A stretch of DNA of 64,000 bases from Patescibacteria group bacterium (GTDB lineage Bacteria > Patescibacteriota > Patescibacteriia > Patescibacteriales > UBA12465): assembly GCA_041658665.1 (NCBI GenBank), contig JBAZZR010000001.1:256576-320575 (forward strand). The letters are read 5' to 3'. Under the pieces are notes generated by a model. It did not search any database. It was not told the DNA's origin and worked only from the letters and a program-made list of their open reading frames with translations. Below, one piece after another: positions 10,841 through 16,674 of this stretch (position 1 is the stretch's first letter; each line of letters starts with the position of its first letter). Position numbers and translations under genes: made by a program.

Positions 10841-10870
10841 TTGACAAAGATAGAGAAAATATGGTATATA
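10841..10870 (+). promoter_or_regulatory. sigma70-type promoter (extended -10)
   Basis: TTGACA, 18 nt spacer, then TGGTATATA. Confidence 0.5.
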
Positions 10871-10934
10871 TTCTATGCAAATTAGTTCGTTAACAAAAAG
10901 ATAATTTATTCAATAAATCAGAAAGAAGGTCATT

Positions 10935-12032
10935 ATGAAAAATCTCAGTCCCGGTAACATCGATTTTCTTGGAGTTGGCAATAAGTGTAATCTAAATTGT
11001 CGGCAATCATGCTATTTTGTAGAACAAAAATCCCTTCCCACTATCGAAAAAGCTGATGATTTTTTCATTATGAAAAAGATCATTAGTCAGTTTCCTAAAG
11101 CCGCTTTTTTTGCCTATCCTAAGGAGATAACCACGAGTATGAATATCAGCCAGATTTTTCCTATTACTAAACAGACCCATGTGCTTTCTAATGGTATTTT
11201 GTTAAATGAGGAAAAAATCGATTGTCTTAAAGCAGCTGGTATTACTAAAGTTAAAATAACTTTATTTGCTAATTTTCGAGATCACTCTTTGTTTTATAAC
11301 ATCAATGAGAGTCAATATGAAATAATCAAGAATAATATCTCGTTATGTAAGAACCGGGGGTTGCTCGTTACTGTTAATAATATTATTTCTCAACCGACTA
11401 AGAATTCAATCGCCGAATTAGTGGCCTTGGGTTCCGATCTGGGTGTTGATAAAATACGTTTTATCAGACTCCAGCCGATGGGTAATGGTCAGAATGCCGA
11501 TCTCAGTTTATTTATAACTGAGAACGATATGCCGGACATAATTTTAGCCATAGAAAAATGTAAACAGCAATACCCCTCAGTTCACCTAGGCTATACCATA
11601 AGTTTTGGCCCTAACTTTTATTTAAAGACCAGGGAAGAAGCAACGGAGAAGATTCGCTTATCTCAGCGTGATTGGACTAAGAGTAAATATCTTTGTCCGG
11701 CTATTAATGGTGATTATCTTGGCATTTCCATGAAGACAGGCACTTTATACCATTGTTTTTGGGCAATGAGCGATCCAGAATTTGTTGCTGGTCGAATGGA
11801 TTTATCAACGGGCAAAATTATTGAGAGGCGCGATACAGCTCTCTCGGCGGAAATCCTGCGGGAGAAATTGCGTGGTAATTGTCATAAAGACAATTGTAAA
11901 TATCAGGATTTATGTTTAGGAGGGTGTCGATGTGCGGCCTACGCTTTTGCTAAAATGCGGGGTGAAGTTGACCCATTATTTGCGGGTATGGATATCTGTA
12001 TCACTAAGTCTCAGGAAAAGATTTTAGGTTGA
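10935..12032 (+). CDS. radical SAM / SPASM-domain protein with atypical Cx3Cx3C motif
   Basis: 365 aa. N-terminal CNLNCRQSCYF (Cx3Cx3C). C-terminal SPASM signature is Cx14Gx4C (CPAINGDYLGISMKTGTLYHC) plus CHKDNCKYQDLCLGGCRC. Confidence 0.8.
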   Translation: MKNLSPGNIDFLGVGNKCNLNCRQSCYFVEQKSLPTIEKADDFFIMKKIISQFPKAAFFAYPKEITTSMNISQIFPITKQTHVLSNGILLNEEKIDCLKAAGITKVKITLFANFRDHSLFYNINESQYEIIKNNISLCKNRGLLVTVNNIISQPTKNSIAELVALGSDLGVDKIRFIRLQPMGNGQNADLSLFITENDMPDIILAIEKCKQQYPSVHLGYTISFGPNFYLKTREEATEKIRLSQRDWTKSKYLCPAINGDYLGISMKTGTLYHCFWAMSDPEFVAGRMDLSTGKIIERRDTALSAEILREKLRGNCHKDNCKYQDLCLGGCRCAAYAFAKMRGEVDPLFAGMDICITKSQEKILG

Positions 12033-12081
12033 TTCTATTGATAATTAATTTATTTTTTCAGTATTTATAGGAGAATATATA

Positions 12082-12960
12082 ATGGACACGTTAGTTTTAA
12101 TTGATCTTGATTTGACCTTGATAAATAGAGAATATAATTTAACTCTTCCTTTAGATCAAGTATGTGCTGCTATTAGTGAGGCGAAGAAAAATGGGGTGAT
12201 GATTGGATTAAATTCTGATTCTTCCCATCATACCCTTATTGATTGGTATAAAAAATTGGGTTTGGATGGTCCAATTATTTTAGAAAGAGGGGCGGTGATT
12301 TTTAGGCCGGGTTTAATGGGCTATATAGATATTTCTTCTGATAGCGCTCGTTTATTTTCTCAGTTAAGGCAAGATTTTGTCGAAATTTTACCGTCAATTT
12401 GTCCGAATATTTTGTGTGGCGACGCCAATGTTATCCAAGCGACTTATCGCCCTTGGCTCGGCGAAGAAAAATTCATTATTATTAATGATTACCGGCAGAG
12501 AAGTTTAAGTTTTTTTGCGCGCCAGTTGGGGAAGGATGGTAAATTACTTATTGATTCGGTATTGTTAAATCAAGCAGCGGCTTTATTGAATTCTTTAATT
12601 CAAGATAAATATCCGACTTTGGCTCAAGAGAAAGACGAAGATAATAATCCGGATTATGGCGTCTATATTCTTCATAGTCTATTTTCTAAGAAACACCGAG
12701 CGGTCGTCAAACTATTGGATGAATTAAAGCTCGATCAAATATGGATGATCGGAGATAGTCTGTCTGATTTTATTGATGACGTGAGAGTAAAACACGTAGC
12801 GGTGTCTAATGCTCGTGATTCCTTTAAAGAGAAAGCTAATTTTATAACTAAAGGCGCTATTACTGAAGGAGTAATAGAATTTCTCCAGACTTTGTCAGAA
12901 GCGACGGATTTAACTCAAGCTCTATCAAGAATAGACGGCGACCTTCAGATTCTGTCTTAA
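12082..12960 (+). CDS. HAD-superfamily hydrolase (Cof/IIB-like)
   Basis: 292 aa. Motif I is LIDLDLTL (DxDxT) and motif IV is GDSLSD. Confidence 0.65.
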   Translation: MDTLVLIDLDLTLINREYNLTLPLDQVCAAISEAKKNGVMIGLNSDSSHHTLIDWYKKLGLDGPIILERGAVIFRPGLMGYIDISSDSARLFSQLRQDFVEILPSICPNILCGDANVIQATYRPWLGEEKFIIINDYRQRSLSFFARQLGKDGKLLIDSVLLNQAAALLNSLIQDKYPTLAQEKDEDNNPDYGVYILHSLFSKKHRAVVKLLDELKLDQIWMIGDSLSDFIDDVRVKHVAVSNARDSFKEKANFITKGAITEGVIEFLQTLSEATDLTQALSRIDGDLQILS

Positions 12961-12983
12961 GAGTCTGGCGGTTATTTTTACAA

Positions 12984-13012
12984 GCGGTGGCTTTTATTGG
13001 TCACCGTTTTTT
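12984..13012 (+). terminator. rho-independent terminator
   Basis: GCGGTGGC-8 nt-GTCACCGTTTTTT with two G-U pairs. The track ORF's GTG start at 12987 lies inside this hairpin. Confidence 0.45.
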
Positions 13013-13070
13013 AATTAGTTTTCTATTTATTGATTTTATTGGTTTAATCTGTCATTATTTTAGTAAACAT

Positions 13071-14854: not shown

Positions 14855-14859
14855 TTAGT

Positions 14860-14998
14860 TAATACTAATCAAATGATTAATTATCAGCTAATCACAATTT
14901 CCAATCATCATATTGGGCTCTCCCGGAAAGAGATTAATTTTGGTTAATTATTTTTTAAAGTAACCTGATTTAATCCCTTTCCAGAAGGGATTTTTTGT
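14860..14998 (+). ncRNA. candidate small RNA, leader or 24-codon sORF unit between a promoter and a terminator
   Basis: About 140 nt from the predicted TSS to the terminator. Contains local hairpins and the ORF 14873-14947 (MINYQLITISNHHIGLSRKEINFG), which has no SD. No known family recognised. Confidence 0.3.
14972..14998 (+). terminator. rho-independent terminator 60 nt upstream of the PRTase-like gene
   Basis: AATCCCTT-TCCAG-AAGGGATTTTTTTG. Confidence 0.65.
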
Positions 14999-15057
14999 TT
15001 TTAATAGTAAACAATGAATATTAGTACATTTATATAATAATAATAGGAGAACAGGCC

Positions 15058-15939
15058 ATGAATAAGCCTTATGTAGTATCAGCGGATGTTTATTTGTTAT
15101 TGAAAAATTGGGCTATCCAAAAAGGCTTCACTTTACCGCCATTAAATTTTTTTACTGATTTAAGAAAAAAAATGGTTGTTAAGTTAGAGCAGATATTTGG
15201 TTCAGTCGATTTTGTTTCGGAAGATGATTTGCAGCAAGGGTTTGATTATTTTTTTAAACGAAATAATTTGCCCGTCGTATCTTTGGACCGTGTCTACGTC
15301 GACGCTAAATTTAATTTAGAATTGACTAGAGTAGTAGACAAACTCGGTAGCGATATCGGATTACAGCATCGAGCGGGAACACCTGATTTAATAGATCAGA
15401 TAAAATTGGTCAAGAGTGGTCTCGATCAAAATGTGACTCCCCCTAAAGTCGTGTTAACCGATGACGTTATTTTTACCGGAGATTTATTAATTAGGGTCAT
15501 CGAGATGCTAGAAAAAGAGAGTATTGAAGTAGCTGGTGTTTACGCTGGTATTGGAGTAGCTGAGGGTGTTGATAAAATCAAGGCCAAAAATATTCCAGTC
15601 GCCTGTGTTTACGAGTATCCAGAAGTTATTGATGAAGTTTGTGAGAGAGATTTTTATCCAGGCGTCCCTCTGTCGGGTCGGCTTATAGCTAATAGCCCTA
15701 ATATCTGCTCTCCTTATCTTTTACCTTTTGGTAACCCAGGTAAATGGGCTTCAATTCCTAAGGAATTTCAAGCTGATTTTTCCAGCTTTTGTTGGGAACA
15801 AACAAGTCAACTATTCCTGGCGATTGAGGATTACTCTAAGAAACAGATATTTTGTCATGACTTAGGTCGTTTGATTATCAATTTTCCGGTCAACGGAACA
15901 AGTTATGTCAAAGCTATCAAGACCTTAGTCTCAACTTAA
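15058..15939 (+). CDS. phosphoribosyltransferase-like protein
   Basis: 293 aa. PRPP-binding-loop-like VVLTDDVIFTGDLL preceded by an approx 130 aa N-terminal extension. SD is AGGAGAACAGGCC-ATG. Confidence 0.55.
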   Translation: MNKPYVVSADVYLLLKNWAIQKGFTLPPLNFFTDLRKKMVVKLEQIFGSVDFVSEDDLQQGFDYFFKRNNLPVVSLDRVYVDAKFNLELTRVVDKLGSDIGLQHRAGTPDLIDQIKLVKSGLDQNVTPPKVVLTDDVIFTGDLLIRVIEMLEKESIEVAGVYAGIGVAEGVDKIKAKNIPVACVYEYPEVIDEVCERDFYPGVPLSGRLIANSPNICSPYLLPFGNPGKWASIPKEFQADFSSFCWEQTSQLFLAIEDYSKKQIFCHDLGRLIINFPVNGTSYVKAIKTLVST

Positions 15940-15980
15940 ATCTGATTTCGACATAAATAACATAAATTTCGATACAAAAT

Positions 15981-16012
15981 AGCCGGTAATTCAATTTACC
16001 GGTTTTTATTTT
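15981..16012 (+). terminator. rho-independent terminator
   Basis: CCGGTAA-loop-TTACCGGTTTTTATTTTTTT. Confidence 0.6.
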
Positions 16013-16131
16013 TTTAAAAATCGTTATTAGAAAATTGCCATATATGTGTGCATATTACCCTTGGTAATTGACTTTTTGTCAAAAATTAGTCATGATTATT
16101 TTAATCAATTATAATAAAATTATTTTAAAGT

Positions 16132-16674
16132 ATGAAAGAAATAAACCGAAAATTACAGATAGGCGTGATGGGTTCAGACGCTGATTTAAATTATTCTAAG
16201 AAAATAGAAGAATTAGCCTTTGAAGTTGGTAGAGAAATTGCCAAAAGCGGGAATACTACTGTTTACGGAGCAGAGAAGGATTATGATTCTTTATCAACGG
16301 CGGCCTCTCGAGGAGCTAAAAGTTTAGGAGGATTAACGATTGGCGTTACTTATGGAAAAGGAAAAGATATTTGGGACAAGGAGGGGAATACGGACGTCAT
16401 TATTGTGACCGGAATTGAGCGCGGTGGCGGGCGAGAATTTGTTTTAGTAAATTCTTGTGACGTGATTATTATGATCTCCGGCGGTTCGGGCACTCTAACG
16501 GAAGCGGCTATTGCTTATCAGATGAATATTCCGATTATCGCTTTAGTAGGGACTGGCGGCTGGGCCGATAAGTTGGCCGATACTTATATTGATGAACGTG
16601 AGAGAGTAAAAGTTGATTCGGCGAAAACTCCGTTAGAAGCGGTGGAATTGGCGATTAAATTGGCTATTAAATAA
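16132..16674 (+). CDS. LOG / TIGR00725-like Rossmann-fold nucleotide-binding protein
   Basis: 180 aa. LOG-type motif ISGGSGTLTEA and GVMGS N-terminal glycine-rich segment. Confidence 0.7.
   Translation: MKEINRKLQIGVMGSDADLNYSKKIEELAFEVGREIAKSGNTTVYGAEKDYDSLSTAASRGAKSLGGLTIGVTYGKGKDIWDKEGNTDVIIVTGIERGGGREFVLVNSCDVIIMISGGSGTLTEAAIAYQMNIPIIALVGTGGWADKLADTYIDERERVKVDSAKTPLEAVELAIKLAIK

Follow-up and report, generated by a model that had tools for sequence, protein, structure and literature searches.

We analysed a 64,000-nucleotide (nt) stretch of DNA from a Patescibacteria group bacterium (UBA12465; GCA_041658665.1, JBAZZR010000001.1, 256,576-320,575 of the forward strand), referred to throughout as the window, in whose coordinates all positions are given. 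The segment under study (10841-16674) encodes a radical S-adenosylmethionine (SAM) enzyme with a SPASM domain (rSAM), two HAD phosphatases, a kinase-like protein (KINL), a phosphoribosyltransferase (PRTase)-like protein (PRTL) and a SLOG/LOG-like protein (SLOG). With moderate confidence, we read it as this lineage's form of a histidine-regulated PRTL/SLOG module that is conserved across Patescibacteria (the Candidate Phyla Radiation, CPR) and would serve histidine supply at the level of phosphoribosyl pyrophosphate (PRPP) and ribonucleotides. The module is tied to histidine both by position and by regulation: hisS and tRNA-His are physical neighbours of its core, and two independent histidine devices are predicted, namely HisR operators—before hisR and SLOG, in many species—and a His-codon attenuator before PRTL.

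An initial annotation, made from the letters alone, had described the six same-strand genes as an orphan set mapping onto no known pathway. All six open reading frames (ORFs) are indeed present on the plus strand at 10841-16674 in the ORF listing, and all six domain calls hold when compared with Pfam and NCBIfam profiles, motifs and, for KINL and PRTL, structure models. The set is no orphan, being a CPR-wide module with ties to hisS, tRNA-His, hisR, the histidine ammonia-lyase-like gene HAL, hisG/E/I/D, HisR boxes and a His-codon attenuator. The location between hisS-HAL upstream and tRNA-His downstream, both of which we confirmed, had been correctly recorded and is key to the module; the annotation drew nothing from it.

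Predicted histidine control before PRTL and SLOG

The window lies on a metagenomic contig of 821 kb, and its relatives are all Patescibacteria. A scan restricted to one genome per species returned 80 loci, nearly all labelled Patescibacteria, and 79 species loci were counted. The loci (L numbers below) were retrieved with ±10 kb flanks, and all their ORFs were compared with the window proteins and clustered. In the window, a 316-nt spacer precedes PRTL and holds, in this order, a promoter, a leader ORF and a hairpin with T run (14972-14998):

14826-14854, + strand: promoter of the PRTL leader transcript (TTGACA, 17 nt, TATTAT)
14873-14947, + strand: leader peptide ORF MINYQLITISNHHIGLSRKEINFG, 24 codons, with His codons at 14906-14911
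14925-14998, + strand: predicted attenuator RNA, with an antiterminator helix (14925-14983) and a terminator hairpin (14972-14992) plus T run
15058-15939, + strand: PRTL, PRTase-like, with a PRPP loop and, in the structure model, a type I PRT core
15981-16004, + strand: intrinsic terminator of PRTL (terminator scan)
16132-16674, + strand: SLOG/LOG-like protein (LDcluster4, close to TIGR00725; PF18306, 100.8 bits)

The promoter of the leader transcript is conserved in L094, L010 and L011, as is the leader itself, which carries HH in the window and HHH or HHHNH in these relatives. Folding with the ribosome footprint masked suggested that a ribosome stalled at the His codons would leave the antiterminator to form (-18.1 kcal/mol) and to sequester the 5′ arm of the terminator, and that a ribosome at the stop codon would let the terminator form (-9.4 kcal/mol). 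Across all loci, 33 short intergenic ORFs contained at least three consecutive His codons, with 22 of them at most 170 nt upstream of PRTL, two before GNAT-PRTL and two before SLOG; none of the 33 stood directly before hisS, HAL or rSAM. The leaders have in common the peptide pattern ...HHH(N)xLFLEEIGCG, the elements CTCTTCC, GGAAGAGATTGG and CAATCCCTTCC...GGGATTTTTT, and the terminator. Over 14 species, the antiterminator helix was 85.7% paired with compensatory changes at 5/11 pairs—a degree of pairing reached by 0/500 shuffles, slid controls giving 37-59%—and the terminator was 96.4% paired. No Rfam family matched the attenuator. A known riboswitch or T-box was considered and set aside, as Rfam searches at gathering and at E ≤ 5 gave tRNAs only. 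A his-type, ribosome-mediated attenuator is hence predicted before PRTL in at least 22 species, the window included. Because a His-codon leader and an antiterminator/terminator switch precede the gene, PRTL expression is predicted to respond to histidine (His-tRNA) limitation.

The second device involves the small TrpR-like gene that stands first in the module. It belongs to the YerC/YecD family (TIGR02531 yecD_yerC, 75.7 bits vs a cut-off of 42.2), which was identified as HisR. HisR represses the genes of histidine biosynthesis and transport, uses histidine as its co-repressor and binds DNA better in vitro when histidine is present; its operator consensus is cacTTTAn6TAAAgtg (PMC9413887). Among 35 CPR hisR genes, 16 had a HisR box with at least 12/14 matches 18-45 nt before the start, as compared to 1.3% of random windows. 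In 1.39 Mb of loci, ACTTTAn6TAAAGT (at least 11/12 matches) was found at 49 sites. Nearly all of these lie either before hisR, where tandem copies are frequent, or 4-13 nt 5′ of SLOG.

Perfect HisR boxes were also seen directly 3′ of PRTL (L019 3578, L032 10912, L034 10886); the box in L034 is followed at 67 nt by an integrase-like gene (cluster c28). Such boxes might act as a second operator, as a roadblock or in control of the next gene.

A neighbourhood conserved across Patescibacteria

The neighbourhood comparison proposed by the initial annotation was strongly positive for PRTL and SLOG, and the scenario it had named as refuting, orthologues that never co-occur, fails decisively for both. 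SLOG was found in 60/79 PRTL loci, usually adjacent. The other recurrent neighbours were hisR (33 loci), hisS (27), an AstE/AspA-like deacylase (16), HAD-IIB and HAD-IA (14 each), HAL and a PfkB kinase (10 each), KINL, GNAT and HisG (6 each), a nucleoside hydrolase (5), and a purine nucleoside phosphorylase (PNP)/UDP phosphorylase and a second APH-like kinase (4 each). These counts are lower bounds, many loci ending at contig ends; by our estimate, one given gene would fall within 20 kb of a ~1 Mb genome by chance in ~2% of cases. The commonest order is hisR, SLOG, PRTL, often with hisS co-translated 3′ of PRTL: judged from stop-to-stop ORFs, the PRTL and hisS frames overlap in L070 and L082 and are 3 nt apart in L065. 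The tRNA found most commonly in the related loci was tRNA-His (19/75). Module genes occur in one copy per genome and in conserved synteny with hisS, tRNA-His, ligA and gatCAB, and the order hisS-HAL-...-PRTL-SLOG is common to relatives at 50-88% identity. PRTL and SLOG thus form the core of a CPR-conserved neighbourhood, with HADs and kinases as recurrent, exchangeable accessories. The earlier suggestion of a chemistry centred on phosphorylated riboses or nucleotides gains from these relatives, which add a nucleoside hydrolase, PNP, a PfkB kinase and HAD::PRTL fusions.

The segment had also appeared AT-rich by eye. The difference is real and modest (GC 0.356 vs 0.390 for the window, 4th percentile among same-size windows). 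We considered a recent horizontal island and rejected it: GC is only modestly low, gene order is kept in relatives, and indels are limited to rSAM, plus HAD-IIB and the kinase in the sister lineage.

To find his genes, eight E. coli His proteins were compared by phmmer with 1.42 Mb of loci and the window. None matched in the 64-kb window, where no canonical his operon was encountered. The related loci contained hisG (6), hisE (2) and hisI (4, two of them beside rSAM), plus hisD and a HisB-N-type phosphatase; the only hisC match was a weak aminotransferase in L013 (E 1e-17). In a saccharibacterial locus (L065, 4278-12217), hisG(short, 234 aa)-SLOG-PfkB-HAD2B-PRTL-hisS is divergent from LOG(PF03641)-hisD-histidinol-phosphatase, the last being of HAD-IIIA, HisB-N type. 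In L077, hisG-hisE, hisI, SLOG, hisS and HAD2B-KINL-HAD2B-PRTL are found together, interspersed with two minus-strand genes (one SLOG-like, one unknown). HAL and hisG both occur in L070, which removes the idea that the two are mutually exclusive alternatives.

Several further observations concern these neighbourhoods. Short HisG normally requires a HisRS-like HisZ subunit, and in L065 the only nearby candidate for such a partner is hisS itself. A family of 321-349 aa (c67) recurs in the Saccharibacteria-type loci L070, L077 and L081 (e.g. L077 4876-5838, minus strand), with hisI or SLOG on one side and PRTL or hisS on the other; Pfam, NCBIfam and PDB searches gave no match for it. A divergent SLOG-like protein (c68, 251 aa; L077 3141-3893, minus strand) lies between hisE and hisI, and its cluster-mates lie near hisS in L072 and L076. 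The tRNA-His of the window has C rather than G at position -1 and, by eye, A73 and U.U oppositions at 4:69 and 5:68 in the acceptor stem. Among tRNA-His genes of CPR loci (L009, L011, L033, L047 and others), neither position -1 nor the discriminator is constant (C73, A73 or U73 for the latter), and G-1 is encoded in few.

The gene set of the window

The remaining features of the segment and its flanks are as follows:

7672-9114, + strand: hisS, histidyl-tRNA synthetase (TIGR00442, 335 bits vs a cut-off of 287; PF13393 and PF03129)
9104-10768, + strand: HAL, histidine ammonia-lyase-like (PF00221, 498 bits; the methylideneimidazolone (MIO)-forming Ala-Ser-Gly, ASG, at residue 153)
10795-10820 plus T run, + strand: hisS-HAL terminator (terminator scan)
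10841 (TTGACA) and ~10862-10870 (TGgTATATA), + strand: rSAM promoter, read by eye
10935-12032, + strand: radical-SAM/SPASM protein, rSAM (TIGR04085, 27.3 vs a cut-off of 27)
12082-12960, + strand: HAD-IIB (Cof-type) phosphatase (PF08282, 43.6 bits; DLDLT)
12987 (GTG) or 13071 (ATG) to 13733, + strand: HAD-IA phosphatase, nucleotidase-like (PF00702/PF13419; DLDGT)
13834-14742, + strand: KINL, small-molecule kinase of predicted APH/ChoK fold (structure model), likely start M11 at 13864
14745-14774, + strand: intrinsic terminator of KINL (terminator scan)
16716-16856, + strand: promoter (16716-16743, promoter scan) and tRNA-His (GUG; 16782-16856, tRNA search)

Each gene had been said to be bracketed by a promoter and a terminator. 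This stands for clear terminators 3′ of HAL, KINL and PRTL and for a weaker one 3′ of HAD-IIB; the terminator scan gave none 3′ of rSAM, HAD-IA or SLOG. In total, 45 promoter-like sites were observed vs 32 ± 6 expected, and 17 terminator-like sites vs 8.8 ± 3.1, among them the site at 14972-14992 that is part of the attenuator. All genes tested are under purifying selection, with ratios of nonsynonymous to synonymous substitution rates (dN/dS) of 0.03-0.17. The hisS and HAL frames overlap by 11 nt (9104-9114), and therefore the two form one operon; the arrangement is identical in L010 and L011. Two enzymes in competition for free histidine are thus co-translated. HAL models gave 485 and 453 bits on the window protein, slightly below their cut-offs. 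In the flanks, a 209-aa ORF 3′ of tRNA-His (17015-17644) has no family match and is kept only in the closest relatives (L009, 89%; L011, 47%), and a second, unrelated radical-SAM protein of 349 aa (PF04055 and a faint Fer4_12) lies ~9 kb upstream of the cluster (~958-2007; L001 24-1073).

By sequence, PRTL shows only its PRPP loop (V130-L143, VVLTDDVIFTGDLL, with D135, D136 and G141 invariant); PF00156 scores 16.8 bits, below the cut-off of 26.3. The structure model (predicted local distance difference test, pLDDT, 94.5) matched OPRT, APRT and XPRT in Foldseek (E 3e-5) over ~150/293 residues at template modelling (TM) scores of 0.25-0.30, and it assigns PRTL a predicted type I PRT core fold with PRPP loop. 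A large conserved C-terminal part contains an invariant Cys/Glu/Arg/Asp cluster and is family-specific, with invariant DEVCERDFYPGVPLSGR and PYxLPxG..WASxP. The family comprises at least 400 close homologues and 1037 representative clusters with a mean column identity of 57%; 12/25 members weakly match PF24390 PRTase-CE. No RNA-binding domain was detected in PRTL by profile search or structure match. Long PRTL proteins turned out to be HAD-IA::PRTL (e.g. P0185) and GNAT::PRTL fusions, and a SLOG-PRTL fusion was discarded as a candidate.

Beside PRTL, several loci contain a second, longer paralogue of 336-379 aa that is 23-30% identical and carries the motif DWxPDHDFxPFxPxxGR (L033 13759-14841(-), L039 4285-5382 and 5529-6551, L048 12974-14047(-), L051 10998-12041(-), L073 611-1747, L075 2128-3171(-), L082 12298-13305). 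For its N-terminal HHH tract there are three possibilities: histidine sensing in frame, metal binding, or a mis-called start that takes in a leader.

SLOG matches PF18306 LDcluster4 well above the cut-off (100.8 vs 26.3) and stays below those of TIGR00725 (91.5 vs 106.9) and PF03641 (18 vs 27). Its GGSGTLTE is present, and the Gly, Ser, Thr and Glu positions of this motif are conserved in at least 95% of 58 sequences; QIGVMGS, RGGGRE and GGSGTxxE are near-invariant motifs. SLOG identity across CPR is 53-98% (mostly 60-77%), as compared to 24-47% for hisS once the closest relatives, L010 and L011, are set aside, and the dN/dS of SLOG is 0.028. PDB sequence relatives are 1rcu (TM1055), 2iz5 (a molybdenum cofactor (Moco) carrier protein) and 7w2i (LOG).

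Both phosphatases are HAD members, the HAD-IIB protein by DLDLT and PF08282 (43.6 vs 20.9) and the HAD-IA protein by DLDGT and PF00702 (48.8 vs 26.4). Neither reached a substrate-specific (equivalog-level) model in NCBIfam: HAD-IIB fell below the cut-offs of TIGR00099 and TIGR01487, and HAD-IA below those of TIGR02253 (87 bits) and the pyrimidine 5′-nucleotidase model TIGR01993 (59 bits). In PRTL loci, HAD-IIB often occurs as HAD2B-kinase-HAD2B. KINL has no sequence match in Pfam, NCBIfam or PDB. Its AlphaFold model (pLDDT 91.9) matched APH(3′), ethanolamine kinase, maltokinase and MtnK in Foldseek (E 5e-8, TM ~0.5), and the catalytic residues K54, the D189..N194 loop and D206 are invariant in 23 sequences. 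Because fold and catalytic residues are in place and a Pfam/NCBIfam match is absent, KINL is, on its model, a new sequence family predicted to have an APH/ChoK-type kinase fold. Elsewhere, PfkB or the second APH-like family takes the equivalent neighbourhood.

The initial annotation had put the radical-SAM enzyme at the centre of the set. The gene is absent in L010 and L011, where the order hisS-HAL-HAD2B-HAD1A-KINL-PRTL-SLOG is retained, and in almost all PRTL loci; the sister contig L094 has the order hisS-HAL-rSAM-HAD1A-PRTL, without HAD-IIB and kinase. The family is small (33 matches among 5.8 billion proteins) and limited to CPR bacteria and DPANN archaea (Berkelbacteria, Aenigmatarchaeota, Woesearchaeota). 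In eight of nine contexts, hisS, tRNA-His, HAL, hisI, hisR or PRTL is nearby: L002 reads rSAM-tRNA-His-...-HAL-...-hisS, L004 rSAM-SLOG-PfkB-PRTL-hisS, L008 racemase-rSAM-hisI, L089 rSAM-tRNA-His-hisS, L090 hisS / nucleoside hydrolase-rSAM and L091 hisS-PRT-rSAM, and in L006 rSAM adjoins hisI and hisR. L092 is the sole context without a histidine-related neighbour. PRTL and SLOG are both lacking from L002, L006, L008 and L089. The 'rSAM' genes near PRTL in L049 and L061 proved to be different SPASM proteins and were excluded from the counts. We conclude that rSAM belongs to the module as a sporadic accessory, that its small CPR/DPANN family tracks hisS, tRNA-His, HAL and hisI, and that rSAM may be an optional extra acting on a small imidazole or nucleotide-type substrate.

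The N-terminal motif of the window rSAM is C18-x3-C22-x3-C26, and the canonical radical-SAM CxxxCxxC is absent from the window. The SPASM signature of seven cysteines is complete (C254-x14-G-x4-C274, C316-x4-C321-x5-C327-x3-C331, C355); TIGR04085 is reached (27.3 vs 27), with x4 rather than x2 spacing in the second block. PF04055 scored 19.7 bits, below its gathering threshold of 29.5, over residues 79-155 only; most rSAM homologues have a precomputed PF04055 match. The best profile and structure matches, all far below family cut-offs, were AhbD, NirJ, PqqE, MoaA, SkfB, Tes and BlsE. The three N-terminal and seven SPASM cysteines are invariant among 21 aligned members, and YPKE stands in the region where a GGE motif is usual. 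The Cx3Cx3C spacing, which had been put forward as a family trait, is confined to the window and its 92% sister L094, an independent assembly that also has the extra Ser; all 19/19 more distant aligned members have Cx3Cx2C. Because every other aligned member has this shorter spacing, the extra Ser is a lineage-specific one-codon insertion. A dN/dS of 0.093 against L094, similar to that of neighbouring genes, together with the intact SPASM cysteines ruled out a decaying pseudogene, and the Cx3Cx3C protein is probably a tolerated or adapted variant that is still functional. As to the peptide maturation considered earlier, no small ORF that might be a precursor-peptide gene was found in the 166-nt and 49-nt spacers flanking rSAM, and the small 'ORFs' after rSAM homologues in L002 overlap the tRNA-His gene.

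Several rSAM homologues (P0005, P0008, P0017, P0018) carry a C-terminal extension (...VCETSRxGS...) that is read-through into an overlapping tRNA-His (L002 11127-11199; L089 9106-9178). The database proteins are over-extended there, and the rSAM gene abuts tRNA-His.

Possible functions and known systems

How might such a module serve histidine supply? When charged tRNA-His is low, ribosomes would stall at the leader His codons, the antiterminator would form and PRTL would be made. PRTL might then carry out a PRPP-dependent phosphoribosyl transfer that aids histidine supply and is needed when histidine is scarce. The variable partners would turn base, riboside and ribotide into one another and feed ribose-5-phosphate back into the PRPP pool. 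In this scheme, PRTL would make the ribotide from the base; SLOG would hydrolyse the N-glycoside of the ribotide, giving base plus ribose-5-phosphate; HAD-IA would dephosphorylate the ribotide to the riboside; PfkB or KINL would phosphorylate the riboside to the ribotide (or else phosphorylate ribose); and, in relatives, nucleoside hydrolase or PNP would release the base from the riboside. HAL, co-translated with hisS, would set the level of free histidine.

Two versions of this reading can be told. One, which we hold as a tentative possibility, is a recycling arm for purine auxotrophs, in which AICAR (5-aminoimidazole-4-carboxamide ribonucleotide) is stripped and AMP re-made. The ATP phosphoribosyltransferase (ATP-PRT) route uses up one adenine ring per histidine and releases AICAR. 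This AICAR would be broken down to AICA (the free base) and ribose-phosphate by SLOG, HAD and the nucleoside-cleaving enzymes, and PRTL would make AMP from adenine and PRPP. The recycling version would explain the histidine control, the LOG gene within the hisD operon and the salvage-type accessories. The other version, which we find doubtful, has PRTL catalyse the committed, PRPP-consuming reaction of histidine synthesis or salvage by a non-canonical route; PRTL might act jointly with HisRS, as HisG-short does with HisZ. This version fits an attenuator placed as in hisL-hisG and the missing middle his genes. The two are not separable on present evidence. CPR bacteria are generally regarded as histidine auxotrophs. 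We give little credence to a broader idea, that CPR—and, via rSAM, some DPANN—may have a non-canonical route to histidine or an imidazole precursor. PRTL would stand in for the ATP-PRT entry or circumvent it, the LOG-like protein, HAD, kinase and sometimes rSAM or a reverse-acting HAL would replace the missing hisA/F/H/B/C, and a new class of His-leader attenuator would switch the route on. HAL deamination and N-acetylation of the GNAT/AspA-like kind both mask the alpha-amino group of histidine, from which one might speculate on an imidazole substrate.

A number of points weigh against the histidine-supply reading. The enzymatic roles given to the module proteins are all read from fold, and the nearest solved relatives of SLOG are uncharacterised or non-catalytic, the Moco carrier protein included. 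PRTL and SLOG acting on one base would make a futile cycle. The window leader has two His codons only, relatives having three or four. The window contains no hisR gene, and its HisR box matches are at chance (8 vs 9 expected); no histidine control other than the attenuator was seen in this lineage, which has apparently lost hisR and its boxes. In the oral Saccharibacteria L078 and L079, PRTL and SLOG occur without visible histidine control. A catabolic HAL within a histidine-starvation module is hard to rationalise, and its co-translation with hisS fits histidine homeostasis better than either version. The recycling version demands a working ATP-PRT histidine pathway, which was not seen in the flanks: phmmer found no hisA, hisF, hisH or imidazoleglycerol-phosphate (IGP) dehydratase in the 1.42 Mb of flanks and window. 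The RAAC4 OD1 locus (L043) carries hisR-SLOG-leader-PRTL, and the complete RAAC4 OD1 genome was reported to be without nucleotide and most amino-acid biosynthesis (PMC3812714), which is therefore evidence against recycling in that organism. The co-occurrence of hisG and PRTL in six loci conflicts with PRTL as the committed step.

Other explanations place the histidine link elsewhere. PRTL and SLOG could be passengers, performing ordinary nucleotide salvage in an ancestral hisR-SLOG-PRTL-hisS operon whose histidine control evolved for hisS. It is common for an aminoacyl-tRNA synthetase gene to be under the control of its cognate amino acid, the L012 leader precedes PRTL-hisS and so places hisS under the attenuator, and PRTL and hisS are frequently co-translated; the enzyme types would make up a complete base/riboside/ribotide network, as for adenine, and the oral Saccharibacteria retain the pair without histidine control. 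We nevertheless judge this unlikely: most leader-bearing loci have no hisS 3′ of PRTL, and HAL, hisG/E/I/D and histidinol-phosphatase joined the cluster repeatedly, in differing arrangements. In the window, PRTL has its own terminator and hisS its own promoter 6 kb upstream, for which reason the attenuator appears to be maintained on PRTL alone. It is improbable, too, that the module acts on tRNA-His or HisRS, with PRTL as a PRPP-dependent enzyme of tRNA-His modification or maturation (Rit1 is a PRPP-using enzyme that acts on yeast initiator tRNA), SLOG as a binding partner and rSAM as a tRNA-modifying enzyme. The tight linkage to hisS and tRNA-His, the abutting of rSAM and tRNA-His in L002 and L089, the unusual window tRNA-His (no encoded G-1, A73, two U.U pairs), an attenuator that would sense precisely a shortage of charged tRNA-His and a SLOG conservation as expected of a macromolecular partner (53-98%, dN/dS 0.028) all speak for such a target. 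Yet the accessories would act on small molecules (HAD nucleotidase, sugar or nucleoside kinases, nucleoside hydrolase/PNP, N-acyl-amino-acid deacylase, GNAT), a HAD is even fused to PRTL, HAL and hisG/E/I/D are metabolic, and PRTL has no detected RNA-binding domain.

Cofactor or peptide maturation centred on rSAM/SPASM, with the other proteins tailoring its product, might be argued from the full SPASM domain, from nearest models and structures that are cofactor or nucleoside enzymes (AhbD, NirJ, PqqE, MoaA, BlsE) and from the Moco carrier protein among SLOG relatives. The distribution of the gene makes this very improbable: L010 and L011 have all other genes in order and no rSAM, hardly any of the 79 PRTL loci contain it, and L002, L006, L008 and L089 have it with neither PRTL nor SLOG. 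Nor was a precursor-peptide ORF found nearby. SLOG, PRTase and HAD domains reportedly recur in conflict systems, as work of Burroughs et al. 2015 and Anantharaman et al. 2012 is said to describe, and the initial annotation had likewise raised a nucleotide-centred conflict or anti-phage system. Weak STALD/ThsA matches (E 0.004-0.012) and the weak PF24390 PRTase-CE matches of some PRTL members would point that way. We consider the idea hardly tenable in view of the absence of a significant PADLOC match (two weak ones only: HAD-IA, E 0.0086; SLOG to ThsA, E 0.012), the single copy per genome in conserved synteny with housekeeping genes (hisS, tRNA-His, ligA, gatCAB), the strong purifying selection (dN/dS 0.03-0.17), the histidine regulation, and the lack of effector, sensor or mobile-element features.

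CPR make up a large share of bacterial diversity, and how they secure amino acids and nucleotides with genomes below 1 Mb is an open question; published reconstructions describe them as auxotrophic or using novel pathways (PMC3812714). A widespread, uncharacterised enzyme pair under predicted histidine control by two textbook devices bears on it, and few uncharacterised CPR genes carry such a clear regulatory signal. The His-leader attenuator, absent from Rfam, could be used to find further regulon members, and the Cx3Cx3C rSAM, kept under purifying selection, offers a natural variant for enzymology. Were the module merely a salvage loop, it would show purine-auxotrophic symbionts balancing ATP/PRPP use against histidine. 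No account of the module, PRTL or the leader was found in the literature searched or in Rfam.

The closest regulatory parallel is the enterobacterial his attenuator, hisL before hisG. As in that system, a promoter is followed by a short ORF in which His codons stand in a row, by an antiterminator and a terminator that exclude each other and by a gene for a PRPP-using transferase, with predicted read-through at low His-tRNA. The enterobacterial leader has seven His codons, however, as opposed to two to four in CPR, and the CPR element is unrelated to the Rfam His_leader in sequence and structure. It often lies within an operon, between SLOG and PRTL, and its target is the type I PRT-fold PRTL rather than HisG, which is separate in six loci. 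HisG has a type IV fold, unlike the type I PRT fold. The coupling of PRTL to the HisRS gene nonetheless resembles that of hisG-short to hisZ. With the HisR regulon of Firmicutes and other phyla, the CPR loci share the repressor family, the operator consensus and autoregulatory sites before hisR; published regulons comprise the his biosynthesis operon and histidine transporters and do not cover CPR (PMC9413887), where the regulated genes are SLOG and PRTL and where the window lineage lacks hisR and boxes.

As for the proteins, PRTL has the PRPP-binding loop and core fold of type I PRTases (APRT, OPRT, XPRT), but matches them over about half its length. SLOG has the Rossmann-like SLOG fold and GGxGTxxE of LOG phosphoribohydrolases, PpnN and the TIGR00725-Moco-carrier branch, whereas it stays below the PF03641 and TIGR00725 cut-offs and has PF18306 LDcluster4 as its best family. 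The rSAM protein resembles SPASM/twitch enzymes (AhbD, NirJ, MoaA, BlsE; SkfB, PqqE) in its N-terminal three-Cys site and C-terminal 7-Cys SPASM; it differs in scoring far below equivalog cut-offs (50.6 vs 500 for AhbD), in YPKE for the GGE region, in the SPASM block Cx4Cx5Cx3C, in the Cx3Cx3C of the window lineage and in the lack of a partner peptide. The single elements—attenuator, HisR regulon, PRTase, LOG, HAD, APH-fold kinase and SPASM protein—are all of known kinds, and it is their combination and function that are new.

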